Shown here one piece after another: positions 24,689-59,005 of a stretch of 64,000 bases of DNA. The DNA is taken from contig NC_086097.1 in the NCBI RefSeq assembly GCF_963921235.1, positions 142,416,001 through 142,480,000 of the forward strand, in the 5' to 3' direction. The DNA comes from Mobula hypostoma. Taxonomy: Eukaryota. The translations under genes and the position numbers were made by a program. Each line of letters begins with the position of its first letter. Positions within the stretch are counted from its first letter, which is position 1. The notes under the pieces are model-generated. The model worked only from the letters and a program-made list of their open reading frames with translations. It was not told the origin of the DNA and made no database searches.

Positions 24689-24743
24689 CGAATAAACAGG
24701 AATAGGATACTAGGATGGTCAAAGATGGGAGGGTGAAGTGTAG

Positions 24744-27138: not shown

Positions 27139-27216
27139 CTTCATAGTTGATGCATCCATTTGCATCCTCTTGACCAGCCAACAGTTGCTCCACTTCATCC
27201 TCTGTCAACTTCTCAC
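27139..27216 (-). CDS. MYL3: MYL3-like coding exon 5 (GC donor)
   Basis: 78 nt, caacag acceptor; (G)[25 protein letters not shown]; donor AAG|GCAAGT. Confidence 0.93.
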
Positions 27217-30739: not shown

Positions 30740-33600
30740 GCAAATAATTAAGAAAATAATGGGTTTGCCTATGAAAAATTATGGGAAAATGGATGAAAGT
30801 TGGCATGAATTTGCTAAAGACAGATTAAGTCTGACCATCTTCACTAGGGTTTTGTTGAAGCAAAGGACTGGTATTGATGAAGATACAGTTATTGGAATTT
30901 TAAATGTCAGCATGATGCATCTCTGACCAACTGTGATGTCTTGCAGACAGCTTACAAAACTATTGAATACCCTCCTTCTTCCAGATGCCACTTCTTCTTC
31001 TGAACTGCGATTGATTGCAGCCTGCAGTTTCCCTTTTAAGAATGTATTTTTTTTTTGACTAGCTGAGCAATCTGGTGCTTCTGCTATCTCCTGAGCGATT
31101 TGGCATGAATTACAAGAATGGTCGTCCCTGGGTGTGGCTGTGTCGATTCCTAATGGTGGACCACAACCCTTGGTCAGCTCCATTACGCTGCGTCATTCGA
31201 AGCGTCGAGCAAGATTGAAATGAATGAGGATGAGAACATAAAACAAACAGGTGTTCAGTGCCATCCACCTGCATTTGACCAGTCTTCCCCTCGCTGCTGC
31301 CAGCTGAAGCAACAGGAGTCTTGGGTTCCATCTGCAAGATTTGATCACCTCGGCAACTCATGGATGTGGACTCACTTTTGGCTGCGGTTTGATGTTTAAT
31401 GTCCTCAGCACTGAATATACTTTACTATTTGCACAATTTGATCAAGGCACTTCATCGTGGAACTGGATCTGCGGCTGTGGCCTGCAGCCATTGACACAGT
31501 GCCAAACTGACTGACTCTGTGGCTGTGGCCACGGCCACCAGTTCCTGGATCGGCTTCACTCACCTCGGTGGCTCGTGGTTGTGCATGCACTTTTCGGGAT
31601 TCTGCAGTGTGGAGTTTAATCAAACACGAGTTATTTGTTCACTTTTTATTTTTGCACTTTTGATGGTCTTGTTGTGTGGGGTTTTTCCTTAATCGGGTTC
31701 TATGGTATTTCTCTGTTTTTTCTTTTGAAGTTTGAACTCAAAAGTAGTTCCCAAAAGTATCACATGATAGAATTTTAAGAAAAATAAAGACCATGGGATT
31801 ATAAGGGCAATGGTACAGTCGATATAAAGCAGGGGTCCCCAACCTTTTTTGCACTGCGAACCGGTTTAATATTGACAATATTCTTGTGGACCGGCCGATC
31901 CGCCGGGGGGGGGCGGGGGCAGTAGGATTGCCAACGGACAAGAGTAGCGGTCAAATACGTTGTGTTTACCCATTAAGACTACAATGACCATGAAGCCTTG
32001 CGCGGGCACCAGTGTGCATGCGCGTCGTAATGTACCGATTCCCCCCCCCCCCCGCACCACAACTCCTTTTTGGAGATTCTGTTCAGGGGTGGGGGGTGGG
32101 TAGTGTTAATCACGACCGGAATGTAGGTGATAAGTGGCTAATACACTCAATTTCGTTTCTAAAAGGGTTCATCTAACGAATTTAATATTAAACACACAGC
32201 GCATATTTTCCTTGCATGAATATAGTGATAAGTCAATTATCAGGGGAGCTTGAAGTAAGTGTTGAACGAACTTCCAGTAGGAATGGCAGAAGCAGTTTCG
32301 ATATTATCATTTAAAGAAAAAATAGATAGCTATATGGACAGGAAAGGAATGGAGGGTTATGGGCTGAGTGCAGGTCGGTGGGACTAGGTGAGAGTAGCGT
32401 TCGGCACAGATTAGAAGGGCAGAGTTGGCCTGTTTCTGTGCTCTAATTGTTATATGGTTATATAAGTAAGTCAAAAACATCATAACATTTTAAGTAACGT
32501 TTGGATATTAAACACACAGCACATATTTTCCCCGTATGAATATATAAATCATTGAAACACACCAATATTGCTGAATCAGTGGGAGCCCTGGGCTTGTTTT
32601 CCTGCAACAAGACGGTCCTATCGAGGGGTGATGGGAGACAGCGATACTCGAAGGGGGTTCCTTATGTCCAGTCTATTCCGCAATTTAGTTTTCGTTGCAT
32701 TCATTGCAGAAAACTCCGCTTCGCAAAGATATGTTGAAAATGGAAGCAACGTTTTCAGTGCTTTCGTGGCTATCTCAGGATATTTAGCCTTGACTTTGAT
32801 CCGGAATGCCAGCAGAGATGTTATGTCAAAACATACTTTTCAGCCCGCCATCATTTGCAAACTTGAGGAGTTCATCTCCTTCCCGCGCTGACACGCATGA
32901 CGCGCAGGTAAAGACCTCGCATGTGTAGTGGCTCAACAGTGCGTGACAGGGAATGAGGAAAGGTGCAGCTGACTCATATCGCCAAATCATATCGTTTCCT
33001 CGCGGCCCGGTAGCATATGCTTTGCGGCCCGGTACCAGTCCACGGCCCGGTGGTTGGGGACCGCTGATATAAAGGACAAAAGGAGTTGATTTTCCAACTT
33101 AAAGAAAATATGCAGTGGTGTTCCCATCAATTAGGACTGCTATTCATACTTATATACATTCATAAACTGGGCTTTAATATGTGGCATTATTTCAAGTCTG
33201 CACATGAAAACAGCTTGAAAATAAAGTATGTTCTGTGAAGAATAACAAACTTAAGGAAGATATAAAGAGTATTGACATGGGCCAACAGATGGCAGATGAA
33301 ATTTAGTGCAGAGGTAGAATGAATGAGGAGCAGCAAAATACATTACACAGTACAATTTTAAAGGAAATGCAGGAACAAAGATCAATACAAACCTTTGACC
33401 ATGTTTGAACAAGGATGTCAACTGGCTTCATTAAAAGACTTCAAGCACAAAATGAGTCTATAAATCTAATCTATTGAACATTAATTAGGCCTCAGTCGCA
33501 GCAATGTGTTCATTTCTGAGCATCACATTTCAGGATTGTTGCTAAAGTCTTAACAGATGCTGTCAGAAATGAAGATCTTAATTTTTATGACATAACTGGA
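30740..33600 (+). mobile_element. Very old CR1 fragment split by two later insertions
   Basis: Collinear CR1 RT remnants at about 30740-30905, 31740-31829 and 33067-33600. Confidence 0.5.
31830..33066 (-). mobile_element. Non-autonomous hAT (Charlie/MER1-like) transposon
   Basis: TIRs CAGGGGTCCCCAACC / GGTTGGGGACCGCTG (1 mismatch in 15), 8-bp TSD ATATAAAG (31822-31829, 33067-33074), minus-strand transposase C-terminal remnant (IKVKAKYPEIATKALKTLLPF) at about 32620-32860. Confidence 0.92.
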
Positions 33601-34029
33601 CAAGTAAGTGTTTTTCTCAGGTTGAATTAATCCAATGAGATAAAGAGCATTATAACGTTCTGTCAGCTTTATCCAGCAGTAGTGATAAATTGGAAGTTAG
33701 CTCATTTTTCTCAGAACCAGAGTTGGAAGTGGCTACGTGGTTGTAGTGAGATAAGAAACAACAGGTTCACACTGTGACATCTCTAATAGCATACAGAGCC
33801 TCAATGGTAGGCAGAAGAGCTGGATGTTAATATGGTAATAGGAGATCTAGAGGCTTAGGCTAAGACTCCAAAATATCCAGTGGTAAGACCTGGTCAAGGG
33901 ATCTATAATGGGGAGTGTAGTCTATGCATGAACTGTCAGGAGGAATCAATTCCATGCTTCTCTGTACCATACTGACCTTTGAAATTATGCATTTTGCATC
34001 TTTTATCACTTAATCCTAAAATTACATAC

Positions 34030-34203
34030 CCAATGTAGCTAAGACATGGCGAAGTTCAGCTCCCATTACTGTGCCATTTCCTTCCTTATCAAATACTCTC
34101 AGACCTTCAACGAAGTCTTCAAATGTTCCTTGATCCTTAACTTTGCAGATATGTTGATGCATTGGCAGAAAGGTGTCAAAGTCCAACAGCTTGTTGTTCA
34201 TAT
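34030..34203 (-). CDS. MYL3: MYL3-like coding exon 4
   Basis: 174 nt, tttacag acceptor and gtatgt donor; (D)[57 protein letters not shown](G), EF-hand region. Confidence 0.95.
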
Positions 34204-34954
34204 CTGTAAAATAAATGAAGACAAGATTACCTTACAAATAACATCCACATTATGCACAACATTGCATAAAGCATTTTTAGATTTCAATACTTGCACACTG
34301 GACAATGTCTTCCACTGTAACTAAAACAGAAGATACTGGAAATACTCAATAGGTCAGACAGTATGTCTAGATACAGAATGAGGTCAATTACCTATTGTAG
34401 CACATGTTTGTTTTGTTTCTCATTCCTCTATTTTCCCTCTATTTATATTTCCTTCAGAGAGAGTAGCATGAACATCTTCACCACTGTCCTTTAAATCAAT
34501 GCTATTCTAAGTCATCCATTTTCTCTTGGTCTTCACCCTCCCACATTTATCACTTTGGTTTTCCCCATCCCTCTCCTTCTCTGCAATTTAGAACATGTAG
34601 GCCCTTTCTAGTAATACCTCAATGGACAATCCCCTCTTCCAAGAATGAATTCATTACAATTGCCTATGTTCTTAGGTCTGGAAACCCAAACTGGACACAA
34701 TATTCAGCTGTGATTTCTCAGGGGCTACATGCTTGCAGTAAGAACACTTCAGTCTTGTACTTGCATCCTGTTACAATAAAGACCAAAATACCTTTTACCT
34801 CCCTAACTGCTATACCTGTATGTTAAATTTCAGCAATTTAGTAACACGGACATCTAGTTTTATTTAAACTAACACCTTTCAATCGCTTATCATTTAAAAA
34901 TGTCTCTGTTTTTATGCTTTTGTTTCTACTAAAGTGAATGAATTAATTTTTTTC

Positions 34955-36558
34955 AACACACACAAAATACTGGAGGAACTCAGCATGTCAGGCAGCATCT
35001 ATGGAAAAGAATAAACAGTCTACCTTTTAGCTGAGATCCCTCATCAAGACTGGAAAAGAAGGGTAAGATGCCAGATTAGGAATATTGACGTGGACTGGAC
35101 TGGCAGAAGGTGAGGGGATGGAAGATCAGCTAGACGGTGATAGATTAAGCCACTGGGGGGAGAGGGGGGATGAAGTAGGAATCTGTGAGGTGACTGGTGA
35201 AAATGGCAAAGGACTGGAGAAAAGGAATCTGATAAGAGAGGCGAGTGAACCATAGGAGAAAGGGGAATGAGGAGGGGTACCGGGGGTGGCAATAGGTAAG
35301 TGAGGAGAAGAGGTAAGAGGCCAGAGAGGGGAACAGAAGAAGATGGGGGAGGGAAGAAAAGAAATTACTAGAGAAATTGATATTCTTGCCATCAGGTTGG
35401 AGGCTACCTAGACGGAATATGAGGTGTTGCTCCTCCAACCTGAGTGTAGCCTCATCGTGGCGGAATAGGAGGCCACATGTTGAAATGGGAACAGGAATGA
35501 GGATAGGAATTTAAATGGTTGTCCACCAGGAAATTCCACTTTCTGATGTCCTTTCTCAGTTCCTTTGTCAAAAATACTATTCCCTTTTCTCAGTTCCTTT
35601 GTTTCCACTGCACCTGTTCCCAGGATGAGGCTTTCCTCTCCAGGACATCAGAAATATCCTCCTTCTTCAAAGATTGAGGTTTCCCTTCCTCCACCATTGA
35701 AGCTGCCCTCACTCGTATCTCCTCCATTTCCTGGATGTTTGCACTCAACTAATCTTCCTTAACAGGGATAGAGTTACTCCTGTCCTCACCTATCACTCCA
35801 TGAGCCTCTGCATCCAACACATCATTCTTCACAACTTCCACCATCTTCAACAGGACCCTATCAGCAAACACATCTTTATCTCCCCCTCACTCCCCACCTT
35901 TCATAAGGATCGCTCCCTCTGTGATTCCCTTGTCCGTTCATTCCTCCCCACATATCTCCCTCCCGGCATGCATCCCAGCAAGCGGCAAAAATGTTACACC
36001 TGCCCATTCACCTCCTCCCTCACTTCCATTCACCTCCTCCCTCACTTCCATTCAGTTCCTTCCAGTCGAGGCAACAAGTCACCTGCAAATTTCTTGGGTT
36101 CATCTACTGTATCAGTGCTCCCGACACAGCCTCCTCTACTCTGCTGATATCTGACATAAATTGGTTTTTGTCGAGCACCTCTGCTCCAACTGCAAAAAAT
36201 GGAATTTCCTGATAGCTAACCGTTTTAATTCCTATCCCCATTCCTGTTCCGACATGTCAGTTCATGGCCTGCTCTTCTGCCATGATGAGACAAATCATGA
36301 TCAGATTCTTCATCTACGGCCCTTTGACCATTTCACCTATCACCCCACAGCATCTTACATCACCCCACTCCCCCACCCACGTGGCTTCACCAACCACCTT
36401 TTAGCTGGTCTTCCCCCTCCCCCATCTTCTTATTCTGGCATCTTCCTCCTTTCTTTCTAGTCCTGACGAAGAGTCTCGGCCCAAAATGTTTACTGTTTAG
36501 TCATTTCCATAGATGCTGCCGAACCTGCTGAGTTCCTCCAGCATTTAGTGTGTTGCTG
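34955..36558. mobile_element. Penelope-like element, two 3' fragments in inverted orientation
   Basis: Minus-strand piece about 34955-35545 (EEQHLIFRLGSLQPDG) joined to a plus-strand piece about 35570-36558 (IQHIILHNFHHLQQDP, CYTCPFTSSL). Both end in the same terminal repeat. Confidence 0.85.
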
Positions 36559-36559
36559 T

Positions 36560-36915
36560 TTATAGATAGATAGGTATACTTTATTAATCCTGAGGGAAAT
36601 TTGGTTTCGTTACAACCGCACCAACCAAGAATAGAGCGTAAATATAGCAATACAAAAAACCCCAACAATCAAACAACAAAATGCAAAACTATGCCAGATG
36701 GAAAATAAGTCCAGGACCAGTCTATTGGCTCAGGGTGTCTAATCCTCCACGGGAGGAGCTGCACGTTTGATGGCCACAGGCAGGAACGACCTCCCGTGCC
36801 GCCAAGTGTTGTATCACGGTGGAATGTGGCCGAAGTCCAACAGTAAAAAGTTCAATACTCAGTCTGCAAACACGTTCCTTGATGGTAATATACCCCGGAT
36901 TGCACCATCCGTTTA
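36560..36915 (-). mobile_element. LINE 3' fragment (Rex/Babar-like) with (CTAT)n tail
   Basis: Minus strand ends AATTTCCCTCAGGATTAATAAAGTATACCTATCTATCTAT; a related stub lies at about 53195-53241. Confidence 0.5.
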
Positions 36916-37189
36916 TCAAACATGATTATAACCTTTCGTAAATCCACATTGACTTTGCCCAGCCCTGTTATTACTTTCTAAGTATTCTGTTACCATAATA
37001 ATTACTTACACTTTTTTACTACTGTGGATGTTCTGCATTTTATAGTCTTCTCCCCTCTTTTATAAATGGAATGGGATTATATTTGTTAACCTTCACTCTG
37101 TGGAAACTATTTTTTAAAAATCAATGGTATTTTGTATCCACCATCTCTGTATTTAACTCTTTCAAAATCTTGGGATATAGTCATTAGAT

Positions 37190-39590
37190 CCTAGAGTCAG
37201 AGATGAGAAGTACAGGACAGAAACAGGCCCTTCAGCCAATCTATCCCATGCTAAAACCATTCAAACCGCTTACTCCCAACAACCTGCACTGGGACCACAG
37301 CCCTTCATAGCCCTACCATCCACATACCTATCCAAACTTCTCTTAAGCGTTGGAATTGAGCTTGCATGGACCACTTGTACTGGCAGCTCATTCCACATTC
37401 TCATGACCCTCTGAGTGAAGAAGTTTCCCCTCATGTTCACCTTAAACTTCTCACCTTTCACACTTAAGCCATGACCTCTGCTTGTAGTTCCACCCAACCA
37501 CAGTGAGAAAAAGCCTGCTTGCATTTACCCCATCTATACCCCTTACAATTGTGTGTACCTCTATCAATCTCCCCCCAGTCTTCTACGTTCTAAAGAATAC
37601 AGTCCGAACCTCTTCAATCTTTCCTTATAACTCAGCTCCTCCAGTCCCAGCAATATTCTTGTAAATTTTCTCCATACTCTTTCAACCTTGTTTACATCTT
37701 TCCTGGAGGTAGGTGACCAAAACTGTACACAATACTCCAAATTAGGCCTAACCAACGTCTCATACAACATAACATCCCAGCTTCTGTACTCAGTACTTTG
37801 ATGTATGAAGGCCAATGTGCCAAAAACTTTCTTTATGACCCTATCTATCTGTGACGCTACTTTCAACAAATTATGAACCTGTATTCCTAGATCCCTTTGT
37901 TCTACCACACTACATAAGACCAGAAGACATAGGAACAGAATTAGGCCATCCAGCCCATCGAATCTGCTCCACCATTCCATCATGGCTGATCCCGGATTCC
38001 ACTCAACCCCATAAGCTGCCTTCTTGCCATATCCTTTGATGCCCTGACCGATCAGAAAACAATCAACTTCCACCTTAAATATACCCATGGATTTGGCCTC
38101 CACTGCAGTCTGTGGCAAAGCATTCCACAGATTGACTACTCTCTGGCTAAAAAAAATTCCTCCTTACCTCTGTTCTAAAAGGTCACCCCTCAATTTTGAG
38201 GCTCTGCCCTTTAGTTCTGAATACTCTCACCATAGGAAACATCCTCTCCACATCAACCATATCTAGTCCTTTCAACATTCGGTAGCTTTCAATGAGATCT
38301 CCACGCATTCTTCTAAATTCCCAGTGAGTACAGGCCCAAAACTGCCAAACGTTGCTCATATGATAACTCCCTCAATGCCGGAATCATCCTCATGAACCTC
38401 CTCTGGACTCTCTTCAATGACAATATATCCTTTCTGAGATATGGGACCCAAAACTGTTGACAATACTCTAAGTGCGGTCTGACGAGTGTCTTATAAAGGC
38501 TCAGCATTATCCCTTTGCTTTTGTATTCTATTCTCCTTGAAATAAATGCCAATATTGCATTTGCCTTCTTTACCACAGACTCAAGCTGTAAATCAACCTT
38601 CTGGGAGTCTTGCATGAGGACTCCGATGTCCCTCTGCACCTCTGATGTTTGAACATTCTCCCCATTTAGATAATAGTCTGCACTATTGTTCCTTTTACCA
38701 AAATGCATTATCATACAATTTCCAACACTGTATTCTATCTGCCACTTTTTTGCCCATTCTTCCAATTTGCCCAAGTCCTGCTGCAATCACATTGCTTCCT
38801 CAGCACGATCTACCCTTCCACCTATCTTCATATCATCCACAAACTTTGCCGCAAAGCAATTAATTCCATTATCTGAATCATTGACAAACAATGTGAAAAG
38901 TAGCAATCCCAATACTGATCCCCGAGGAATAACACTGGCAGCCAACCTGAAAAGGCCCCTTTTATTCCCACTCCCTGCCCCCTGCCTGTCAGCCATTCCA
39001 CTATCCATGCCTGTATCTTTCCTGTAGTGCCATAGGATTTTATCTCGTTAAGCAGCTTTATGTGTGGCACCTTATTAAAAGCCTTCTGAAAATCCAAGTA
39101 AATGACATCCACTGCCTCTCATTTGTTCACCCTGCTTGTTACTTCCTCGAAGAACTCTTAACAGATTTGTCAGCAAGATTTCCCTTCACAGAAACCATGC
39201 TGACTTTGACTTATTTTATCATTAGTCTCCAAGTACCTCGAAACCTCATTCTTAATAATGGACTCCAACATTTGCCCAACCACTGAGGTTAGGCTAACTA
39301 GCCTATAATTTCCTTTCTTTTGCCTTCCTCCCTTCTTAAAGAGTGGAGTGACATTTGCAATCTTCCAGTCCTCTGGAATCAAGTGCCCTACCGTTCACTG
39401 CGTAAGACCTACCCTGGTTGGTCCTACTGAAGTACAAAACCTCACACTTGTCTGCATTAAGTTCCATCTGCGATTTTTCAGCCCATTTTTCCAGCTGATG
39501 CAGATCCCCCTGCAAGCCACAACAGTCTTGCTTGTTGTTCACTACACCCTTAGTCTTGGTGTCATCTACAAATTTGCTGATCCAGTGGAT
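37190..39590 (-). mobile_element. Nested CR1 LINEs (one copy, about 37912-39378, inserted in another)
   Basis: The outer copy breaks at TCTACCACACT (about 37911) and resumes at AGTGCCCTACC (about 39382). The inner copy has its own 3' tail and RT motifs (YLDFQKAFNKVPH, KFVDD). Confidence 0.85.
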
Positions 39591-40289
39591 TTATTGCTTT
39601 AAGGCCTATTAATTTCTCCATTTTTTTTAAGCTGGTACTCTCTCTCTAAATCTGTTCTCTGCTACCATTGCAGTTTTTGCCTTAAATATTACTTTCAAAC
39701 TATTGATGAATTTTTGATGTTTGATGTTGTTTGCCTACCGTGAAACCTTTTAATCTACCATGGCCAACACATAACTCATACCTTCATGTATTGCCTTGTC
39801 TGTGTGGATTTAAGATCCTAACTTCAGATCAAACTAAATTACATTTTAGATTTAATAAAAAATTCTGATCAATATACAATAGGCTTGTGTAAAATGTTAT
39901 AAATTAAAAATATTAATTACCATGCATCTCAGCAAAAAGATTATTCATCATATTTATAGTCATCAAATAAATTTCCTCTGTTGGGACCCGCTCCAGTTTC
40001 CATGGGAAATGACCTGCTTATGCTGGCACCTGACAGCCAATGTAGAGGAGTTTCTGAAAGCTAAATACAGGCTGTCCTTTGGCTCTGAGTGATAATTTAT
40101 GCATTCTTTATATTGAGGTTCACATCCTCACCTTAAATTCTGAAATTGTTTGAGAAAGTAGTGATATTTTCTCTGTGGCACAGGTAGTCCATGTGATTAA
40201 TTTCTCACCACCTCCCAAGGCAGGTGACAGAGATTTAGAGGTTGAAATTAATCTTGAATTAATGTGTGGCACATTGGAATTCACATTTG

Positions 40290-40890
40290 TCTACTCTTCT
40301 TGTGGTGTGTTTTCGGGCCAATTGAGCAATCTGGCGCTTTGCTGTCTTCAAGGGGGTTTGATGAAGAAGTGTGCGGCCTTGGGGCCAAGAAGTCTGAAGA
40401 CGGGGGTGGGGGTGGGCGCGAGTCCATGATCAACTATGTTTCCCGCCAACTGGAACGTCGAGGAAGATTGAAATAATTGACGTGAGAACGGAATGCGAGA
40501 GGGTGTTCAGCGCCGTCTACTAGCTTCTTGCTGACTGCTGCTGGGGGAAGGTAACTGTGTGTGATGGTCTCCCTCAAGCTCAATGTTGCCGGAGGATTGT
40601 GTGAGAGGCCTGGAACTCGGCAAGGTTCAATGGTTTATGGATTGGACTCTGCAGTTCACCTTATGATGCCTGGACTCTTTCGATTTTGTGTTTTATATTT
40701 CTGTGTTTTTCACTTGTTTTTTGCCACTTTTTTTGTTATTTGTTTTTTTTTGTGCGTGGGGGTTGGGATTTGATGTTTTTCTTTGAGCGGGTTCCTTCGT
40801 TTTCTTAATTTCATGGCTGTCTGTTGGAAGGTGAATCTCAGGGTTGTATACTGCATACTTACTTTGATATTTGTACTTTGAACCTTTATT
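40290..40890 (+). mobile_element. Unclassified non-autonomous retroposon with Rex/Babar-like tail
   Basis: 3' end GAATCTCAGGGTTGTATA...TACTTTGAAC resembles the tail at 55000-55070 (minus strand); shares GAGCAATCTGG(C/T)GCTT with the insertion at about 30905-31740. Confidence 0.4.
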
Positions 40891-41244
40891 TTTAACCCTT
40901 GTGAGTTTGTGGTTGATTTAGTGGTTCATTTTTGAAAAGGTGGTTGGTTATTATTGTATTTAAATTTTAGATGATCATGTCACAAGGGAAATGTGGTAAC
41001 TGAAGAGAAAATAACTTCCATATTCAGCCCCAAATCTGATTTCCCACCCATCATCTGTGCCACTCTACGACATTTCACCTCCAGTCTCTGCCTCTTTGAT
41101 CCCTAACAGTATTTCCCTGCCTCTGGGACCTGTCCAAGTGCATCCCCTGCCATCTTTTAATCTCATATGTTTCCATGTGTTCTTCACTGAGACAGTTCCC
41201 TTCCTACTGAATTCTCTGGAGTTATGTCATTTGGCCACGTTCAT

Positions 41245-41281
41245 CTCTCTCTCTCTCTCTCTCTCTCACTCTCTCTCTCTC
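41245..41281. repeat. (CT)n microsatellite
   Basis: Direct reading, one interruption. Confidence 0.9.
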
Positions 41282-41299
41282 CCCAAGTACATATTAAGT

Positions 41300-41730
41300 G
41301 AACACGGTCTCTGCCTATATCACCCTTTCCATAGTGTCTTCCACCATGGAAAAAAAATTCCTATGGCTCCCCTTTAACCCTTCCTACCAATTGCTTTATG
41401 CTGATGCTTCTTGCTTTTAAGCCCCTCTGCCAAAAAAAAGGTTTTGTTACTTTTACTCAATCTAGGCCCTCACAATCTTGCTTACCTCTCCCTTCAGCAT
41501 CTCCTGTTACAAAGAAAACAACACCAGCCTATCAAACCTGTCTCCATGTCCACAATTTTCCTGTCCTCACCACACCTTTGCAGATCTCCTTTGGACTGTC
41601 TCCAGTGTAATCATATCCTTCCCGTGACCAGAATTGTACTTGCTCTGACTGCGGAATAACTAATGTATATAGTTCTAGATTAACCTCTGCGCTTTTATAT
41701 TCTCCTCCTTGGCTAATAAAGGAAAACGTC
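41300..41730 (-). mobile_element. Degenerate CR1 fragment
   Basis: FISQGGEYKSAEVNLELY..VQFWS remnant. Confidence 0.6.
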
Positions 41731-41737
41731 ACTTATG

Positions 41738-42068
41738 TATATCAATGACATTGAGCTGAGGAAGCAGGATATCTATAAACACTCACAGTATCCTATTGAC
41801 ATTGAACTGAAGAAACAGGATGTCTATAAATACTCAGATTGTATCACTGACATTTAACTGATGTAGAAGTATGTCTATAAATGCTCATTCTATATGACCG
41901 GTATTTAATTGAGCAACCATGATATCTATAATTGCTTAGATTATATCACTGACATTTAACTGATATAGAAGAGTTTCTATAAATGCTCATACTATAACAT
42001 GAACTAAGGAACCTGGCTCATGCTAAGAACACTGACGTTTAATCACCAGAGGAATATCTATAAATATA
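41738..42068. repeat. 51-bp minisatellite, about 6 degenerate units
   Basis: TCTATAA at 41772, 41823, 41874, 41925 and 41976 (exact 51-nt spacing), and out of register at 42057. Confidence 0.88.
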
Positions 42069-42414
42069 CCTTTATGACATGTCTGTGGTTTCTCATACTT
42101 GCTCACTCATCTCTAAATTAGGACTGAGTTCATGGGATTTAATGCAATAAAGGATTTTATAATTTTGAGGAGGATAAAGCATTTTCTGAAAGCAGGTCTC
42201 TGAACAGCTTTGTGGAAACTCCTTTTATTATACATTAATTCAAGAAACAGATCCACCACTGACATCTCCAACAAGAGATAGACGTTAAATACTAACCTTG
42301 TAACAGACATAGGAATGTTTTGTTTTTAATTTAAGAAGGGCCTGAGGAACAGCACCTGATGGTCTCCTCACTAATTTAATCTTTTCATTTTTTTTTGTAT
42401 CTTCAAACACTTAC

Positions 42415-42564
42415 CTTCTTGTTTTGGTCTTCCTAAGACCTTCATGACCTCTGAATTGGTGGGGTTCTGACCCAGGGCGCGCATGACATCACCACACTGG
42501 GCATAAGTAATCTTCATCTCTAAGTTGGGCGTTCTGTCAAACAGAGTGAATGCTTCCTTGAAAT
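42415..42564 (-). CDS. MYL3: MYL3-like coding exon 3
   Basis: 150 nt, tttcag acceptor and gtaag donor; (D)[49 protein letters not shown]. FDRTPxxEMKITY is typical of MYL3/MYL4; [11 protein letters not shown] favours MYL3. Confidence 0.95.
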
Positions 42565-43079
42565 CTGAAAGAAAGAAACAGTCTGAGAAGGAGCAAAGGG
42601 AATAATTGGAATTTTTTCCATGTCATAATTAGGCTGATATGGAATACTGCCAATTCCAGGTTCTTTTTACCCTCTTTACAGTGATTATATAACATATTAG
42701 TGTCTAAAGTGTACCTTTTCCCAATTATCAGCTTCTTGTTGACTGACACATTCTAGTGACCCATTTTAATTATGAATTTACTTGTTTCAGAGTGTAATTT
42801 CAGGAATAATATATGGAAAAGTATTAAATACAAAGTGAGTGAATCTCACTGCAGATATATCAGTAGACAGGCCTCAGCTGTGTGCCTGGGTCTGCATACT
42901 GTATCATTAATCTCAGTGGGACAATTTGAAACATTGGTAAAGGGAGCAGAGGTAACGTGGCCTCCGTGCTGTAATTTCATAATTCCAGATGATTACCAGT
43001 GCCGAAAGGAGATGTGCATTTGTACCTGAAAGTTGCAGCTGGAGTCATACACACCCCACCATAAAAATTCCTCATGGTA

Positions 43080-44105
43080 GACTGGTCCATAGGTCTTGGT
43101 AAATTGGATGCAAAATTGGCTTGGCCATACAAGACAGAGAAGGTAGTGGTGGAAGGGATATTTCTCTGACTTGAGGTCCGTGACCCAGGGGCATTCTAAA
43201 GAATCAGCACTGGGACCTGTACTGTGTGTGATATATGTGTTAGTTATCTGGTTGAAAATATAAGTGGTCGAAGTAGTAAGTTTGCAAAAACACAAAAATT
43301 GGTGGAGCCGTGGACAGCAAGGAAAAATGCAAAAGGAACAGCCGGATATAGATCAATCAGAGATCATGGCAGAGGGAATTTAAGCTGGATAAATGTGAGG
43401 TGTTGCATTTTGGAAGATCAAATACAAAAGGAAAATATGCAGAAAATAGCAAAACCCTTTGGGCTTCTGATGTACAGAGTGGTCTTGGGGTGAAAGTTCA
43501 TTGCTCCCTGAAAATGGTAAAGCAATAGGATAGGGTGGCAAGAAAGCATCGATGTTCTTGCCTTCATTGTTGGGACATTGATTATAAAAGTTGGGAAGTC
43601 ATTTTGCTGCTGTATAAGACTTCAGTTTGGCACATTTAGAGTACTGTGTGAAGTCTTGTTTCCACAGTAATAGGAGGCTTTGGAGAGGATACTGAAGAAG
43701 TCAGGCAAACTTGGATTGTTTTCCCTGGAGAATTGAAGGCTAAGGGGTGACCTGATGGAAGTATACAAAATTATAAGAGGCACAGAAAGGGTTCATAGTG
43801 AGAGACTTTTTGTCATGGTGGAAATTTCAAAAATTAAAGGACATGTCTTTAAGGTGAGAGGAAGAAAGTTTAAAGATGTATGAGGCGCAAGGTTTTTTTT
43901 AAACACAGTGAGTGATAGTGCCTGGAACACACTGCCAGGAGAAATCGTGGATGCAGATGCAATAGAAACATTTAAGAGACATTTAAACTGATACATGACC
44001 AGGTGTGAAACAGAAAGATACGGGCCATGTGCAGGCAATTAAGATTAGTTTAGATTAGCACCAGACTTGCTGGGATGAAGAGCCTAGGTTTGTGCTGTAC
44101 TCATA
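43080..44105 (+). mobile_element. Degenerate CR1 3' fragment
   Basis: SKFAKTQKL-like RT remnant through a CR1-type 3' UTR. Confidence 0.75.
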
Positions 44106-44486
44106 TGTTAAAACTTCTTTTATTATATTGCCTCTAAGTCTGTCAACAGATATGTGACTATCAATTCATTCAGAAATAACTTTGCAAAGCATATTTAAGT
44201 ATGAATGGTAGTTTTGATTGGAAGGTGCCACCTGAGAGGGTACTGAGACGTACATTCAATAGTAATTTTCAATATGTTATTGTTGTGGAGACTACGGTGA
44301 GTGTTGATAAAGAGGAAGTGAATGGAAACAATTGGAAAACTTTTTCAAATAGGTGGCACAGGTTTGATGGGTCAATGAGATCGATATTTGCTGTAATATT
44401 CTCTGATGGCATGAACAGCTTTTTATTAACCTCCCTCCTCTAACGATACTGAGCTCACACAATGTCCATGGTGCTGACGCACTCAC

Positions 44487-44514
44487 CTTCAATCTGATCA
44501 GCAGTGAATTCAAG
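44487..44514 (-). CDS. MYL3: MYL3-like coding exon 2
   Basis: tttcag|CTTGAATTCACTGCTGATCAGATTGAAG|gtgagt; 28 nt, LEFTADQIE(D); phases match both neighbouring exons. Confidence 0.93.
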
Positions 44515-45164
44515 CTGAAAAGGAAGGAATACTTGTGTTAGGCAAAAGATTTAACTTTTTTAAAAAGTTACAAGAATTATTTATTTTAAATATGATTAAA
44601 AATACACAATCGTACAGAATCATTTGTGCCTCTTATTGGAAATAATTAATTTATATGGTGCTTCAAATGAAATAAGGTATTTTAAGGGACATTACAGGAG
44701 CAGCATCAAACAATATTTGTCGTACAGTGATATAGAGGGTGATAAGAACAGATGAAAAGTTTATTCAGAGAGATAGCTTCTTTTTGGGGGGAGCATCATA
44801 AAAGGGGAAAGACAGGAAAATGTAGGAAGGGAGAGGTTCAGACTCTGGTAGCTAAAAGACAAGAGTCACTGATACTAGAAAGACTAAAATTAGTAAGAAA
44901 CAACTTGTGAAACATCAAGATTTCCTATACAGCCAAAAGTCTTAGAAATTTATTTCATATTGTAAGATCGGAAAGTATAGTAACCATTATGTATAGCTTC
45001 CCAAGAACCAGTAACTAACTGAGCAAACCATTTATGGTGATGGTTAAGGAATAGACATTTACTAGTACATGGTAAAAACCCCCTTCTTCTTTGCCAAATT
45101 TGTGGCATAATCCCCTTTTGCCTTTCTGATTACATTTTAGCAGTCTGACACTCAGACATCAAGA

Positions 45165-45485
45165 TGGCAGAGTCGATCATGCTGCTGCATCACAGCTTCA
45201 GCAACTGTGGTTCAGTCCTGACCCCTGGTGCTATCATAGTGGAATTTACAAGTTTGCTCTATGAATACACATATTTTTGCCTGGGGCTCTGATTTCCTTC
45301 CACATCCCAAAGATGTGCAGGTTGATATGTTATTTAGCTACTTTCAATCACCCTAGAGTGGATAGGTGGTAGGAGAATTGGGGTGGCACTGATGGGCACA
45401 TGAGAGAAGGAGGGAATGGAATTGATAGGATTGCTCTGAAAACTGGCACACACTTGATGGGCTGAATGGCCTCCCATCTGTGTAC
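45165..45485 (+). mobile_element. tRNA-derived V-SINE-like element with CR1-type tail
   Basis: Degenerate B box GGTTCAGTCC, V-domain-like GCTCTGATTTCCTTCCACATCCCAAAGATGTGC, tail GGGCTGAATGGCCTCC. Confidence 0.6.
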
Positions 45486-46079
45486 AGAGAAATTAAGAAA
45501 ATAGTGAATATCCTCTGTATATATGACTCATTCTTCACAATTTGTTATGTATTATTTTGCTCTATGTTTTATTGATCTTTTGTGCTTTATGAATGCAGAT
45601 TTAACAAGAAACAGAGTCACAATCAAACAGCACATAGAGAACCTACAGAGGTGACACCTAGTGTCAGGGTTAGAGTAGCAAAGAAAAACAGTACGAACTT
45701 GCCTTTGCAGCCTGGAATGAAGGCTTTACTATAGAAGTACGTATGAGAAATAGTCAAACAAATTGGTTGCTTTTCCATTTTAAATTCTGAGAGTAAGAAA
45801 GGAGTCATCAATTCAAATTTATAATAGATTATTCAGGAAGCACCAAGAAATGCTTCTTCACAGAAAGAATTCTCAGTGTCTAGAATGTGTCTGTTTCTTT
45901 CCTGTGTGCAGAACGGTTGTTTCATTTGTATTTAACTGCAGGACTGTTCTTCATTGAGGGAAGTGATTGGTTGTTCTTTCGCTATCAGGGTGTGAAATCA
46001 GTTTTAATAATAACTTCAACGTCATTCCTTTCTGTCAGCTTTGTAAAATTTAAATATCGTGATGCTGTAAATTTGAAAT

Positions 46080-46600
46080 AAAACATTAAATGTAGGTAAT
46101 ATTAATAGATCAGGCAGCAGCTGTGTAGAGAGAAAAATGCAGGAACATTTCAGGTCAGTGATTTTTCAACAGATTAAAAAAATATAAAAGCATGAAAAGA
46201 GGGCAGGGAGGAAAATGCAAAGGTAAAGGAGGAGAAATCAGATGAGAAAAAACTATGTCTGTGCAAGATGAAAACATATGTAAATGAAACAAGCAAAGGA
46301 ACAAAACAGGACAAACATTACTGGAAATCAGAAGAAAAAAATATATTACTGGAAATACTCAACAGATCAGATTACCTCTGGACATTGATGTCGTTAATGT
46401 GTAAGATCAATAACTTTTCAAATTCTTTAAATGTGATGTGAATGAGAATATTAGAATTACTATCTGAAATTGTTGAGTTAGTTCAGAAAACATCAGGTAT
46501 CTAACAGATGAGATACTGTTCCTAAAGTTTACAAAGGCCTTATTGGAGTCATGTTGGTAATCCAGAACAGAGAGCTCAGAGTGGGGGTGGGTGGAGGGAA
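46080..46600 (-). mobile_element. Highly degenerate Penelope remnants
   Basis: Terminal-repeat-like motifs at 46090-46170 and 46320-46400, plus an endonuclease C-terminal remnant at about 46460-46560. Confidence 0.4.
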
Positions 46601-47149
46601 AGAGGAGGGGGTGGGGGGGTGAAAATCTATAGTTAGAGATGACTGGAAGCTTAAGGGTCAAGTGCACTGGTTGAAATTAAGCATTACAAAAAATTGTCAA
46701 TTTGTGTTTTCAGGCCCTATATTGTGAGCTGTGAGAACAGTATATTACATTGAACTGGAGGAACTGTCCGATACCCTTGCTGTAGGGGAGGGAAAGAGAA
46801 GATTCAGGTGTTGCATTTCTTGTGATTTAAGGGTTTTGAGTGTTTAGGCTGGTAGGGTGGAAGACAGGAGGAACTCTGTCATGGTTCTCAGAAAGAGGGG
46901 AGCCATGAAGGTACAAGTAAGGAAATCTATTGGAGCTAGCAGGAAGCTTTGTAAATTACAGCAGAAGGAATTTGTAGTTGTAGAGAAAAGATTATGTATC
47001 AGAACAATTGATATGGAAAGTGGCTCTGGCAGAACAGATGCACTTGTAATTAGGGAAGTTATTCAGCTGAGCAGATCCTTAGCTCTGCAATCAACTCTTT
47101 AATCCTCTCTGGTGTTCTGTCTTTTGCCTTCCTTTCAGATAGCCGTAAA

Positions 47150-48012
47150 ACAAGTGCTTTTGCCAAATGTTTTGTCACTTGCAGATGGCAGTAAAATAGA
47201 TGGTGCCATTGTTAATATCAGGATGTACAGACGGATCTTAAACAGCTGAGTAAGTGGGCTAAGGAATGAGAAACGAAGTTTCATTCAGATACTTGTGAGA
47301 AGCTGCATTTTGGAAAAGCAAATGTGGATAGGATATTCACAGTGAAAGGTAGAGCCCTGGGGAACGTTGTAGAACAGAGGGATGTAGAAGCACAAGTACA
47401 TGGTTCCCTGAAAGTTGCACCACAGGTAGACAGGTTGATGAAGAAGGCTTTTAGCATGCTGGTCTTCATTAGTCTGGGCACTGAGTATGGAAGCTGGGAT
47501 GTTATTGCAGTGTACAAGATGTTGACGAGTCTGCTTTTGGGATATTGTGTTCTGTTTTGGCCGCCCTTCTCTAGGAAAGATACCATTAAGCTTGAAAGAG
47601 CGCAGAGGAAACCTACAAGGTGTTGCCAGGATTTGAGGGACTGAGTTACGGAAAGAAGGTGAGCAGTTTGGAGCTTTTTTTATTGGAGCATAGGAGGATG
47701 AGAGGCTTATAGAATCATGAAGGGCATAGATAGAGTCAATCCACAGTCTTTTCCCTGTGGTTCAGGAAATCAAAAGCTAGAAGGCATAGAGATAAGGTGA
47801 GGGGGAGATATTTAATAGTAACTTGAGGAGCAAAATTTTCACATGGAGGGTGGTCAGTATATGGAATAAGCTGCCAGAGGAATTAGTGGAGGCAGGTACA
47901 TTGGTGGATAGGAAAGGATTTAGAGAGATGGCATCCAAACACAGGTAAATGAGACAAGCTTAGATGGGAATCTTGGTCAGTATGGACAAGTTGGTCTGTA
48001 TGACTCTATGAC
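47150..48012 (+). mobile_element. CR1 3' fragment
   Basis: VEQRDVEAQVHGSLKVAPQVDR..YCVLFWPP; tail TATGACTCTATGACT. Confidence 0.8.
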
Positions 48013-48439
48013 TTGCACGAATATCTTTTATTGTGGCTTAATAAAAAGGATTGTTTGATAATGTTCCTCGGAAGTGAATTTGGCTGTTCAGCTACATAAA
48101 AGGCGCTATTTACAAGAATTGGGCAAATGTGACTCTTTCATTCTCTGCAGGAATTGGAGATGTTATTCTTGTACACAAGTCTAAACCTCATGGATAAAAT
48201 AAAACCAGATCTCTCAGTTTTAGTGATTCCATGCTTTGCAAGCAGAAGACTGAACTTGTTATTTATCCACTTCAGATACATAGTGTGAACATCAAAGTGC
48301 CAGAGACAGTAAAACATGCAATAGGTGTAGAATTAACCCGACCCCCACTCTTTGATCATCTTCACTGACGGGGAGTTTTGTGATCAGTGATTGATCAAAA
48401 TGGAGAAGGAACATCCAGGAAGGTACCAAGACCTTGAGA

Positions 48440-48449
48440 CTATTTATAG
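48440..48449. promoter_or_regulatory. Consensus MEF2 site in intron 1
   Basis: CTATTTATAG is an exact match to YTA(A/T)4TAR, in apparently non-repetitive intron sequence. Confidence 0.4.
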
Positions 48450-48924
48450 GGAGTGCACAGCCCAGCAAACATTGTGAAAGGACTGCACCACCTCCAAAAT
48501 TACCCAACCACCTCATTAATCACCTCCAGGAGTGAGGCAAGCTACCTCAGCGTCACCAACTACCCAAGTAAAGATGCTTCAGCATTATTTCTTTTGAATG
48601 TCTTGTCCAAGATTAACTTAGCCTCAACTCAAACCTCATATTTGAACCATCAGATTCACTATTTTCATATCAGCAATTTCTTTATCCATCTTGCAGCTGA
48701 ATGACATATTGATACCTCCCATCATGAAGCACAGACACCCAATATTCTCTATTTTTGTTTCTAGCTTGATTATAATTTTCATAAGTTTCTTCCTAGTTAT
48801 CAGGTGAACACAATGAAGTCATATTTATTCCTTGAGAAAGTTAAACTGGGCTTTCCTTTCAGATGGTAGCATTGGTTTTTGCAAATGGGTGGCTAAAAGG
48901 GCAGGTCAGTTGGAAGACAAAAGA

Positions 48925-49042
48925 GAGAAAATCTGCAGATGCTGGAAATCTGAGCAACACACACAAAATGCTGGAGGGCCAGGCAGCGTCTACGGAAAAA
49001 AGTACAGTCGACGTATCGGGCTGAAACACTTCGGCAGGACTG
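48925..49042 (-). mobile_element. Penelope-terminus mini-insertion with variant hammerhead
   Basis: Homologous to 57492-57633; minus strand AGTCCTGCCGAAGTGTTTCAGCCCGATACGTCGACT at 49041-49006. Confidence 0.75.
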
Positions 49043-49179
49043 AATCGAGGTCAGTTAGAACCAAGGTTCAGCAAAATATTCTCAAAGTGGCCAAAATGAG
49101 CTGAAGTGGCAAAGTATCTTCCTTACACTAATAAAGTAGCTCTCCTTTCACAGCAATCCAAGAGCTTTTATAATTATTT

Positions 49180-49378
49180 TTCTGGGTGCTTCGGTTTCCT
49201 CCCACATTCAAGAGATGTACGGTTAGAGTTAGTGAGTTGTGGTCACACTATGCTGGTGCAAGTAGCATGGCGACATTTATAGGCTGCCCAGCACAATCCT
49301 CATTGACTTTATTTGGCACAAACAACTCATTTCACTGTATGCTTCAATGTATATGTGACAAATAAAGCTAATCTTTAA
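49180..49378 (+). mobile_element. V-SINE-like fragment
   Basis: GGGTGCTTCGGTTTCCTCCCACATTC motif and tail TGTGACAAATAAAGCTAATCTTT. Confidence 0.6.
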
Positions 49379-49847
49379 CAATATATGTTTTTCTAAATGA
49401 GGAGAGTCCAAGTTCCAATTCACCTTTTACTATCTACCCTAGCAACCATATGACACAAACTTACCAGGCTTATTGAACACAATTACACACTTTGCCAGCA
49501 TCTGAGCTTCCAGTTTTCCTGAAGTGCACCATAACCACTAGAAGGAACAAACTACAAAATGCCAAATCTCTGTTGTCTACAACCTGTTCTACTCGAAGCT
49601 CTGTTCACTTACTGCTCCTGACTCTGACATCGAAACCTGTGTACTCATTGACAAGCCACTGCTCACTCTCCCCCTCAACAACCTCTAAGTAAAACTTTTA
49701 TAACTTCAGATGCTCAACATGGTGAACTCTTCCATTTTGTAGAGCATTTCCCATGCCAAAGTTTCTTTTATTTTCAGAATTAATTTAGAACCACACACTG
49801 AAAGGAAGTGATTAGATGCCCCTTGCTGATGGGGGAGATGTACTCAC

Positions 49848-49955
49848 AGTTACTGACTTGGGGTCGAATTCAGGCTCCTTGGGAACCTCTGGCTCAGGAC
49901 GCTTCACCTCCTTCTTCGGCTCCTCTTTTTTGGGCTCGGGTTTCTTGGGTGCCAT
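49848..49955 (-). CDS. MYL3: Essential myosin light chain (MYL3-like), coding exon 1
   Basis: ATG at 49955-49953; reads MAPKKPEPKKEEPKKEVKRPEPEVPKEPEFDPKSVT, with the MAPKK N-terminus of long essential light chains; ends at donor GTGAGT, phase 0; 108 nt. Confidence 0.93.
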
Positions 49956-51117: not shown

Positions 51118-52722
51118 GACACAAAATACCCTGCAGATGCTGGGATCAAAGCAACACTCACAACATGCTGGAGGAACTCAGCAGGTCGGGCAGCATCCGT
51201 GGAAACGATGAGTTGACATTTCGGGCCGGAACCCTTCGTCAGGACTGTAGGGGGAAGGGGCAGAGGCCCTATAAAGAAGGTGGGGGAGGTTGGGAAGGAG
51301 AAGGCTGGTAGGTTCCAGGAGAAAAACCAGTAAGGGGAAAGATAAAGAGGTGGGGGAGGGGAAGCAGGGAGCGGATAGGCAGGAAAAGTGAAGAAGGAAT
51401 AGGGGAAAACACAATGGGTAGTAGAAGGAGGCAGAACCATGAGGGAGATGATAGGCCGCTGGGGGAGGGGGCAGAGGGGGAGGGAATTACCGGAAGTTGG
51501 AGAATTCTATGTTCATACCAAGGGGCTGGAGACTACCTAGACGGTATATGAGGTGTTGCTCCTCCAACCTGAGTTTAGCCTCATCATGGCAGTAGAGGAG
51601 GCCATGTATGGACATATCTGAATGGGAGTGGGAAGCAGAGTTGAAGTGGGTGGCTACCGGGAGATCCTGTCTGTTGTGGCGGACGGAGCGGAGGTGCTCG
51701 ACGAAGCAGTCCCCCAATCTGCGTCGGGTTTCACCGATGTAGAGGAGGCCACACCGGGAGCACCGGATGCAATAGATGACCCCAACAGACTCACAAGTGA
51801 AGTGTTGCCTCCCCTGGAAGGACTGTTTGGGGCCCTGAATGGTGGCAAGGGAGGAGGTGTAGGGACAGGTGCAGCACTTACGCTTACAGGGATAAGTGCC
51901 GAGTGGGGGATCCGTGGGGAGGGATGTGTGGATAAGGGAGTCGCGGAGGGACCGATCCCTGCGGAAGGCGGAGAGGGGTGGAGAGGGAAAGATGTGCTTA
52001 GTGGTGGGGTCCTGTTGAAGGTGGCAGAATTTGCGGAGGATAATGTGCTGGATCTGGAGGCTGGTGGGGTGGTAGGTGAGGGCAAGGGGAACTCTGTCCC
52101 TGTTGTGGGGTGAGGGCCAAAGTGCAAGAAATGGAGGAGATGCGGGTGAGGGCATCATTGATGACGATAGAAGGGAAATCATGATCCTTAAAGAAAGAGG
52201 ACATTTGAGATGTCCTGGAACGGAAAACCTCATCCTGGGAGCAGATGCAGTGGAGACGGAGGAACTGGGAATAGGGAATGGCATTTTTGCATGTGGCGGG
52301 GTGGGAAGAGGTATAGTCGAGGTAGTTATGAGAGTCAGTGCACTTGTAGAAGATGTCAGTGGACAGTCTGTCTCCAGAGATGGAGACTGAGCGATCTAGA
52401 AAGGGGAGAGAAGTGTCTGAGATAGACCAAGTGAATCTGAGAGCTGAGTGGAAGTTTGAAGTAAAGTCGATGAAATTGACGAGCTCAGCATGGGTGCAGG
52501 AAGCAGCACCAATGTAGTCGTCAATGTACCAAAGGAGAATTTGGGGAGCAGTGCCAGAATAGATTTGGAGCACAGACTGTTCCACATAACCAACGAAGAG
52601 GCAGGCATAGCTGGGGCCCATGCGATTTCCCATAGCTACACCCTTAGTCTGAAGAACCAGTTGACGGAACTGGTTCTCACACCTAATAACTTCTCTTTTG
52701 GCTCTTCCCACTTTCCTCAGAC
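51118..52722 (-). mobile_element. Penelope-like retroelement (RT + GIY-YIG endonuclease), 5'-truncated with an inverted 5' end
   Basis: KGVAMGNRMGPSYACLFVG, WYIDD, LPFLD; GVIYCIRC..LLYIGET..EHLRSV; frameshift near 52110; terminal repeat 51118-51486. Confidence 0.93.
51211..51246 (-). ncRNA. Minimal hammerhead ribozyme motif (CpG-decayed) in the Penelope terminal repeat
   Basis: AGTC-CTGACGA-A-GGG-TTCCGG-CCC-GAAA-T-GTC-AACT. Confidence 0.65.
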
Positions 52723-57330: not shown

Positions 57331-57491
57331 CTTGAGGGGAAATTATAGGCTACAGGTAGCAGTGAGAATAATTCAAAAGAGGTATATTTCAAAGTTTTGT
57401 AAGCAGTCCACAACACATTACCGTGGTTCATCGGCATCAGCTTGGAACGTTTCAGGTCTCAGCCTGAAGCATCAAAACTTTATTCCTGCAA

Positions 57492-57633
57492 ACAACAGGA
57501 ATTCTGCAGATGCTGGAAATTCAAGCAACACACATAAAAGTTGCTGGTGAACGCAGCAGGCCAGGCAGCATCTCTAGGAAGAGGTGCAGTCGACGTTTCA
57601 GGCCGAGACCCTTCGTCAGGACTAACTGAAGGA
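57492..57633 (-). mobile_element. Penelope-terminus mini-insertion, CpGs largely retained
   Basis: Homologous to 51118-51246, with no adjoining coding sequence. Confidence 0.8.
57588..57623 (-). ncRNA. Minimal type I hammerhead ribozyme motif, intact core
   Basis: AGTC-CTGACGA-AGG-GTCTCGG-CCT-GAAAC-GTC^GACT: stem I AGUC/GACU, CUGANGA and GAAA boxes, short stem II, GUC cleavage triplet, palindromic ACGU at stem III. Confidence 0.8.
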
Positions 57634-59005
57634 AGTATCTTGTATCTAACACATGCTGTGAGATGTTTTGTGAAACAGTTATGCAGAACATGATGTACTG
57701 AATTTCCAGCTGGAAAATTAAAGAAAAAAAATCAGAGATATTGAGGAAGATCTAGTACAGAATCACTTTGCGTCTGAACTCAATGACTTTAGAGCAAAGT
57801 TCCTACATTCTTCCATGATTATTATGTGAAATTACTTCATCCAAATGTATAAGTAAAGTTTACCTTTAGAGTCCCTGATCCTGGTATACTTGCTCTAAGT
57901 TTATCTTTCCAATGTTAAACTGCACTGTCAAAAATCCCATCACATTGGCTCACAGATATACCATATATCACCGTTTCTTACATCTTGTAGATATATGAAG
58001 TACAAAGGAAAAATGAAAGCCTCATTATCTATTGAGGTCACAGGATGGCTTATCCCAGCCAGGCACCAATCATTAAATAAGCAAATAAGGAGTTATTTTT
58101 AAGCATTTGCTTATGTGAAATAGATATCACTGATAAAGTTAGTACTTTTGTTCATCCCAAATTGTCCTTGATAACCATTGCAGTTCTTCTGATGATGTTG
58201 GTTTGGATTTCCAGAATTTTGCTTCAGCAACATAAAGGAAAGGTAATATACTCCGAAATCAGGACACAGATTCTTCCCAGTTTATAAACTCCTCCCTTAT
58301 GCATAGCCTGTACATCTGAACAAGCATTTGGAGCACTGCTGGCTAAAAGTGCTGGCTGCTGGGGAGTTGGCAGGTGACGGTTCTTAACACTGGCTGGAAG
58401 TCACCACATTGCACCCAAGAAAAATACTTTCTAATTGACATGTTGATACCTGTTTTGCAAACCCTATAAGAGACGTGTCATTCAGGCCCCTGTCTACAGC
58501 AAAAATCTTTTAAAAGAATATCATAGTTAGCCAGAGACAGGCTTAGGATAAATTGTTAATATCAGCTTTGCCATTAAGAGCAAAACCAGAATTAAAATGC
58601 TTCTTCAGATTACCTATTCCTATGGGACAACCCACCTCTGTAGGCATCTTCTGCTGTGAGAACTTGGTTTGTTGCGACATTTCTAACTTGTGACCTGGTC
58701 AGATTAGGTACAGTTCTCAGGAATGGAACCTTTCTGTAACCTGGGGAGGATTAACTGGATGTTACTTTTAGTCTTGTTAATTTCTCCAATACCATTCTTT
58801 TAGTATCACTAATTTATTTCAGCTTTCATTTTAAGTGGACCTGCTGCTCTTCGATTTCCTCATCCCCCCCCCCCCCGTAGAACTGTTGCTTCAGTTTTAA
58901 AATTATGGGATTGATGTGAGCATATTTTTTCCAACAGACGGATGTATCTTGGAAAAATCAGTTGACACTGAAACCCAATGCTTTAATTTAATCTGCTTAT
59001 TGGAT

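Follow-up and report, generated by a model that had tools for sequence, protein, structure and literature searches.

A minimal hammerhead motif upstream of a MYL3-like gene, in a probable truncated copy of an abundant Penelope-like element

An intact-looking hammerhead ribozyme motif upstream of a myosin light chain gene raises the question of whether the locus holds a working ribozyme, perhaps in the service of the gene, or a piece left behind by a mobile element. We analyzed the motif in the window (the whole stretch of 64,000 nucleotides studied here) and its relatives in the rest of the genome. Very probably, it is the minimal hammerhead of an abundant Penelope-like element (PLE) and sits in a likely dead, 148-bp end-piece of that element; it is predicted not to cut itself, and its placing near MYL3 is likely a matter of chance.

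Layout and preservation of the motif

The minus strand of positions 57588 to 57623 reads exactly as reported in the first-pass annotation, with the CUGACGA and GAAA boxes and a GUC triplet that puts the predicted cut at 57592/57591, also as given there. Its parts are as follows.

57588..57623, minus strand: minimal type I hammerhead motif (from the sequence, with the stem II register set by pairing probability and alignments)
57620-57623 with 57588-57591, minus strand: stem I
57613-57619, minus strand: CUGACGA box
57612, minus strand: extra A
57608-57611 with 57600-57603, minus strand: stem II, supported register
57596-57599, minus strand: GAAA box
57593-57596, minus strand: palindromic ACGU replacing helix III, with no loop
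57592/57591, minus strand: predicted cut site

The earlier assignment to the minimal type I hammerheads of PLEs is supported. The core is CUGANGA, with GAAA and an NUH triplet; helices I and II are short (4-bp stems in the majorities of three subfamilies); a real helix III is absent, and positions 15.2 to 16.2 are palindromic (ACGU); one extra base, the A at 57612 in the supported register, lies between 9 and 10.1; and the motif sits in the pseudo-LTR (pLTR) of a PLE. The minimal hammerheads (min-HHRs) described from metazoan PLEs, including the fish elements Xena, Poseidon, and Neptune, are likewise of type I, with a short helix I, no helix III, a palindromic 15.2-16.2, and an extra base between 9 and 10.1, and they are mostly single motifs out of truncated copies (PMC4209133). 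The motif studied here differs from that description in its 4-bp stem II, in a G-U at 10.1-11.1 in the young family, and in being very uniform. This G-U is found in the window copy and in 161 of 181 young copies, with G-C in 17 of the 181 and in 18 of 32 older copies.

The earlier drawing of stem II, AGG/CCU, is out of register and is replaced here by GGGU/GCCU, which leaves one extra A behind A9. The pairing probability favors GGGU/GCCU (0.93 versus 0.02), and the C found at 11.1 in those 18 of 32 older copies keeps the pairing with G and loses the pairing with A. In the alignment, the GGGU/GCCU helix is paired in 89% of cells versus 71% for AGG/CCU, and 20 of 34 distinct relatives cannot form the A-U pair of the latter.

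As the first-pass annotation held, this motif is the best preserved of the seven listed for the window, as it alone combines an undamaged core with a full set of stem pairs. The motif at 51211-51246 has kept its core and lost one stem I pair and C15.2, those at 36459, 49006, and 60138 have one or two core changes each, and those at 35017 and 13355 are badly decayed. An Rfam scan of the window gave no hammerhead match up to an E value of 5, and the motif does not belong to the canonical Rfam type I hammerheads with a helix III. The 36-mer is as stable as its shuffles (z = -0.37). The motif at 57588-57623 is a real, textbook minimal hammerhead of a known kind, with nothing special in the lone copy.

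The parent element and its copies

The motif had been placed in a 140-bp solo insertion. An insertion is indeed present, but its length is 148 bp (57488-57635). It and its immediate neighbor are made up as follows.

57488..57635, minus strand: 5'-truncated copy of a young Penelope-like retroelement, reduced to its 3' end (the pseudo-LTR end and the tail); 1 difference in 148 positions from the pLTR of a tandem parent (L079)
57624..57635, minus strand: 12 nt of pLTR 5' of the ribozyme; by prediction they pair with the CUGACGAAGG segment, so that the hammerhead fold is blocked
57623..57625, minus strand: element positions 11-13, site of the 5'-end pile-up of plain short sister copies and likely start of the RNA
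57488..57524, minus strand: optional tail of about 37 nt between the two family 3' ends (from the 3' ends of 94 copies)
57454..57487, plus strand: older-subfamily hammerhead relic (3' half plus linker) adjoining the young copy (from contigs of four runs)

A search with 57470-57640 found at least 39 other places with 96 to 100% identity over about 150 nt, from 40 of 1,024 candidates scored. Longer copies continue upstream into an open reading frame (ORF) for a reverse transcriptase (RT) followed by GIY-YIG, an order pieced together from several copies, without one intact full ORF. In the domain search, the two domains came from two different copies, RVT_1 with an E value of 1.7e-5 (below the cut-off) and GIY-YIG with one of 4.3e-6 (above it). 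Of 30 loci retrieved with the ORF's 5' portion, 11 have the 148 nt just ahead of the ORF and on its strand. The parent consists of tandem units of pLTR, RT-GIY-YIG ORF, and pLTR, with the ribozyme in the 5' leader and the first conserved ATG 138 nt past the predicted cut. The partial tandems, 5' truncation, inverted 5' copies, and optional 30- to 40-bp tail known from PLEs all occur in this family. Rays and sharks supply its closest named protein relatives (67 to 90% identity).

The linker between RT and the endonuclease is CX4CxxC (CKRNKCYTC in locus L010), which fits the CX2-5CxxC linker that marks Neptune/Nematis elements (PMC8557442). Judged by this linker, the element is probably a Neptune-type, high-copy PLE. 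The endonuclease-bearing Neptune/Nematis elements of Craig et al. (2021, PMC8557442) also share the order of RT and GIY-YIG, the partial tandems, 5' truncation, and inverted 5' copies, a one-sided tail, and a pLTR hammerhead; unlike the insertions described there, those seen in the present family are not confined to microsatellites. Two rearrangements were seen in locus L034: the 5' part of the element ORF carries a 98-bp tandem duplication (3250-3450), and in one copy the tail is fused straight to mid-ORF sequence (1427-1456).

The exact 36-mer has 32,886 copies in the genome (16,386 + 16,500), or one per about 106 kb, and the reversed-pattern control has 0. Intact-core motifs with the same spacing number 98,832 versus 69 in the control, so the motif is far beyond chance. 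In 200 kb of unselected DNA, we counted 31 family matches. Nothing therefore singles out the window copy, which is one among 32,886 identical 36-mers, and its motif is intact because the copy is young. The approximately 99,000 intact-core motifs are about ten times the vertebrate counts published in 2014 by Cervera and De la Pena with a different descriptor (about 4,000 in coelacanth and 9,000 in Xenopus; PMC4209133). Supplements of published work may hold larger motif counts or examples from cartilaginous fish.

Cleavage, copy ends, and the start of the element RNA

The first-pass annotation suggested that the window copy may still cleave, which nearest-neighbor folding does not support. The isolated 36-mer is predicted to prefer a GACG/CGUC hairpin (probability, 0.97; -10 versus -6 kcal/mol) that hides the core and the cut site; when its own flanks are added, the core is predicted to pair with the 12 bases upstream, and the probability of stem I is at most 0.04. 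Its closest same-strand relatives, 2.5 and 6.3 kb away, are both damaged. Single min-HHRs were reported not to cleave, and dimers cleaved weakly (PMC4209133); for the anole hammerhead, cleavage is reported to require protein (PMC11167929). Since a misfold is predicted, the neighbors are damaged, and published monomers stayed uncut, we infer that the window copy is probably inactive alone. All of its core bases are intact, and it could in principle take part in trans cutting with another copy or the element protein.

If cut RNA had been copied, 5' ends would be expected at element position 45. Raw breakpoints counted with patterns of equal stringency were 270 at position 45, 86 at 47, and 48 at 43. 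From one set of seven contigs, we fetched 60, 20, and 19 loci for positions 45, 47, and 43, respectively. Half of the 100 matches listed for position 45 begin with CAG; 11 of these 50 were fetched, together with every listed match that lacks the CAG start. All but one of the 11 proved to be inversions in which two copies meet head to head at the 4-nt complement of stem I itself. Such junctions number about 120 in all, compared with 147 and 55 for two other 4-nt microhomologies. Plain 5' ends amounted to about 5, 4, and 5 at positions 45, 47, and 43 on the seven contigs; the script had given 10 plain loci for position 45, of which 5 were found by eye to be element derived, leaving 5. A by-eye tally of 100 rows from a separate listing likewise had no spike. 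We therefore rejected the raw excess as a fossil of cleavage, since stem I microhomology junctions explain it. Inverted junctions beyond the two main microhomology classes were somewhat commoner at the cut (about 20 versus 13 and 8, by eye), and a minor share of position 45 ends may derive from cut templates.

Head-to-head inverted pairs are frequent in the family (21 of 94 exact copies), with junctions on short microhomologies that include fold-backs at the ribozyme palindromes GTCGAC and ACGT.

Copy ends were surveyed in 94 exact-motif copies with flanks (loci L031-L070 and L290-L349 plus the window). The 3' ends fall into two groups, 44 at element positions 104 to 118 and 43 at 145 to 157, with 7 elsewhere; the window copy carries the optional tail. 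This spacing of about 37 nt matches the two RT starts and tail reported for PAc, the Poseidon element of Anolis carolinensis (Frangieh et al. 2024, PMC11167929). PAc also resembles the present family in having its hammerhead at the pLTR-ORF junction, two internal RT starts with an optional 30- to 40-bp tail, and uncut RNA as the main template, as suggested here, no sequence described in that report ending at the cut site. However, the ORF of PAc begins in stem II and both of its RT starts lie inside the ORF, whereas here the ATG comes 138 nt past the cut, both 3' ends are in the leader, and the CX4CxxC linker is of the Neptune type.

On the 5' side, 45 of the 94 copies are long, 21 are joined to an inverted copy, 20 are plain, and 8 are indel artefacts of longer copies. 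Half of the plain copies (10/20) start at positions 11 to 13, the 5' edge of the ribozyme; pooled with bystander copies, 11 of 24 do so within a range of -60 to 13 (P = 7e-10 versus uniform), and because the main sample was picked for an intact motif, starts later than 13 were impossible in it. Among unselected plain copies (n = 10), 2 start at 13 to 14, and the others are scattered from -34 to 53. By rough scaling, each site at 11-13 accounts for about 1,170 plain starts, versus 67 to 92 at 43-47. The window copy starts at position 1, outside the 11-13 class.

The pile-up of plain copies suggests an uncut RNA template starting at the 5' edge of the ribozyme, and element RNA likely starts at positions 11 to 13. 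At this place TTAGTCC matches YYANWYY, the initiator pattern; three further matches occur within 60 nt upstream. RNA starting at 9 to 13 is predicted to form stem I with a probability of 0.08 to 0.53, better than RNA starting at 1 or earlier, an advantage that is lost on extension to position 190. A G that might be untemplated precedes 3 of the 4 plain copies at position 13, in one case inside the target-site duplication, and 1 of the 6 at position 12, too few to call. An internal promoter is reported for Penelope of D. virilis, its start being 46 bp upstream of an intron that ends at helix I. A pyrimidine tract and CAG ending at position 10 give the present element a similar look, and the pile-up might mark a splice acceptor there; this is less likely, because several copies abut a target-site duplication without an upstream exon. 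In the main-text literature covered, we found no description of a strong-stop or start-site pile-up.

For the window copy, we favor origin by reverse transcription of uncut RNA. An element protein would nick the DNA and then begin cDNA synthesis at either of two internal positions, which lie about 65 and 105 nt beyond the predicted cut, and synthesis would proceed through the uncut ribozyme; the window copy would have halted, or been trimmed, 12 nt beyond stem I, beside an older pLTR relic. Cleavage in an active parent would require dimerization of the ribozyme or the help of the element protein.

A nested hairpin (TGCTG...CAGCA and AGCAAC...GTTGCT) is predicted 3' of the ribozyme (57488-57570, minus strand). 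The shorter of the family's two 3' ends coincides with the 3' foot of this hairpin. Its TGCTG...CAGCA arms are kept in older subfamilies, and the hairpin is a candidate RT-binding element.

Conservation and covariation of the stems among genomic copies had been proposed as a check on the motif. Conservation was found between subfamilies: the majorities of three subfamilies (239, 13, and 36 copies) keep all core and stem positions and vary only at N7, loop II, 11.1, and 17. As these majorities match while the 40 nt upstream have diverged (38% alike between two subfamilies whose ORFs are 77% alike), the motif has been conserved in active lineages. Covariation was not detected within this genome. 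In an alignment of 34 distinct copies, it did not rise above shuffles (352/500 and 107/500). Stem I position 2.1 is changed in 4,463 motifs, with its partner mostly unchanged among the 100 listed, and double changes at G10.2/C11.2 number 211 among the 98,832 motifs versus 47 in the control. The variation between copies looks mostly like decay, much of it at CpG.

The lack of covariation leaves some room, though not much, for a reading in which active elements keep the motif for a job other than cutting, as a promoter or an RT-binding structure, its hammerhead look being a leftover. The G-U in place of the usual G10.1-C11.1 in the young family and the initiator-like site in the 5' strand of stem I would suit this, as would the report that hammerhead cleavage is dispensable for insertion in vitro (PMC11167929). 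However, three subfamilies agree at all 11 core bases, in the NUH triplet, and in the ACGU palindrome, and related motifs are reported to cleave as dimers or with protein (PMC4209133, PMC11167929). For the window copy itself, this reading is compatible with the end-piece explanation that we prefer.

The family bears on the role of hammerheads in PLEs, called unclear by Craig et al. (PMC8557442), and the lone copy matters little. Integrated cDNA passes through the cut site and often stops where the ribozyme begins on its 5' side; should the RNA start there, cleavage could remove no more than the capped tip of the message. Tentatively, and with somewhat more doubt than confidence, we suggest that the mRNA begins at the first base of the hammerhead, that the ribozyme is a 5'-terminal switch, and that the short copies are run-off cDNAs. 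Read-through RNA from upstream would then be unable to fold the ribozyme and promoter-started RNA able to do so, a cut licensed by protein or dimerization would trim only the first 32 or so capped bases, and the thousands of 100- to 140-bp copies would be a fossil map of the transcription start and two RT start sites.

The locus upstream of the MYL3-like gene

The hammerhead copy lies, as the first-pass annotation stated, upstream of a myosin light chain gene, on the same strand and 7.5 kb from its ATG at 49955. The best PDB matches of the exons are to myosin light chain 3. Between the two lies intron-free upstream DNA with an older PLE copy.

27140..49955, minus strand: gene for a MYL3-like essential myosin light chain (coding exons located between the ATG at 49955 and about 27140)
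51131..52654, minus strand: older broken Penelope-like copy (RT end, GIY-YIG, and pLTR with the 51211-51246 motif), 77% identical to the young family

Pfam gave no match on the window's own broken PLE pieces.

Contigs of four sequencing runs match the window at 57454-57487 and then continue as older pLTR. There, an older hammerhead half (plus strand) lies beside an inverted fragment at 57443-57455; nothing more of the older pLTR is found on the far side of the young copy, which suggests that sequence was lost upon integration or later. No target-site duplication was found at 57488-57635, where the longest word common to the flanks is 4 nt; many sister short copies have duplications of 10 to 15 bp. 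This missing duplication is a point against the end-piece explanation. In organism B, contigs span both insertion junctions. A contig of organism C diverges from the window sequence at 57487, the 3' junction, which suggests an empty site; no contig bridging an empty site was found among the relatives' contigs.

Given the density of copies, the placing upstream of the MYL3-like gene needs no explanation and is likely due to chance. It is very improbable that the 148 bp serve as a working promoter and ribozyme cassette that yields a 5'-extended MYL3 transcript or tunes MYL3. The copy is on the strand of the gene and aimed at it, it retains the family's likely RNA start along with an intact core, and organism B shares both junctions. 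Among the data sets listed as containing this sequence, none was of RNA. Yet the ATG is 7.5 kb away, nearly all of the upstream pLTR is missing, such placing must be common at one exact copy per about 106 kb, the single difference from the parent pLTR reflects youth and not selection, and the organism C contig departs from the window at the 3' junction.

An independent, nonautonomous retrozyme or SINE-like unit moving by self-cleavage and circularization is just as improbable and largely refuted: many short copies do have their own 10- to 15-bp target-site duplications, and animal non-LTR retrozymes, proposed to be pLTR derived, are likewise short, protein free, and pLTR related, with a type I hammerhead and a cartilaginous fish example (Li et al., bioRxiv 10.64898/2026.07.22.740005), but theirs are tandem units with a hammerhead in each, whereas the window holds no tandem array but a lone truncation product of an autonomous element, the ends of copies do not map to the cut site, 45 of 94 exact copies reach more than 60 nt upstream, and the 29 best sister copies fetched share a common 3' end with 5' ends varying from 3 to about 1,190 nt upstream, into the ORF.

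Several other features of the window were noted. Decayed hammerheads lie within introns of the MYL3-like gene at 49006-49041 and 35017-35051 (minus strand) and at 36459-36494 (plus strand); two are in sense orientation, and all have core changes. The gene also contains five degenerate 51-bp tandem repeats (41738-41996). A near-complete, two-ORF non-LTR retrotransposon occupies 19540-24700 (plus strand), with a zinc knuckle ORF1 followed by AP endonuclease, RT, and RNase H pieces that are interrupted by a few stops or frameshifts. Two direct repeats in 766-4713, about 75 to 80% alike and 3.7 kb apart, enclose decayed RT, integrase, and chromodomain-like pieces and have the appearance of an old LTR retrotransposon. 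A tRNA-like head at 59249-59313 (minus strand; Rfam, 29.5 bits) probably belongs to a tRNA-derived SINE.
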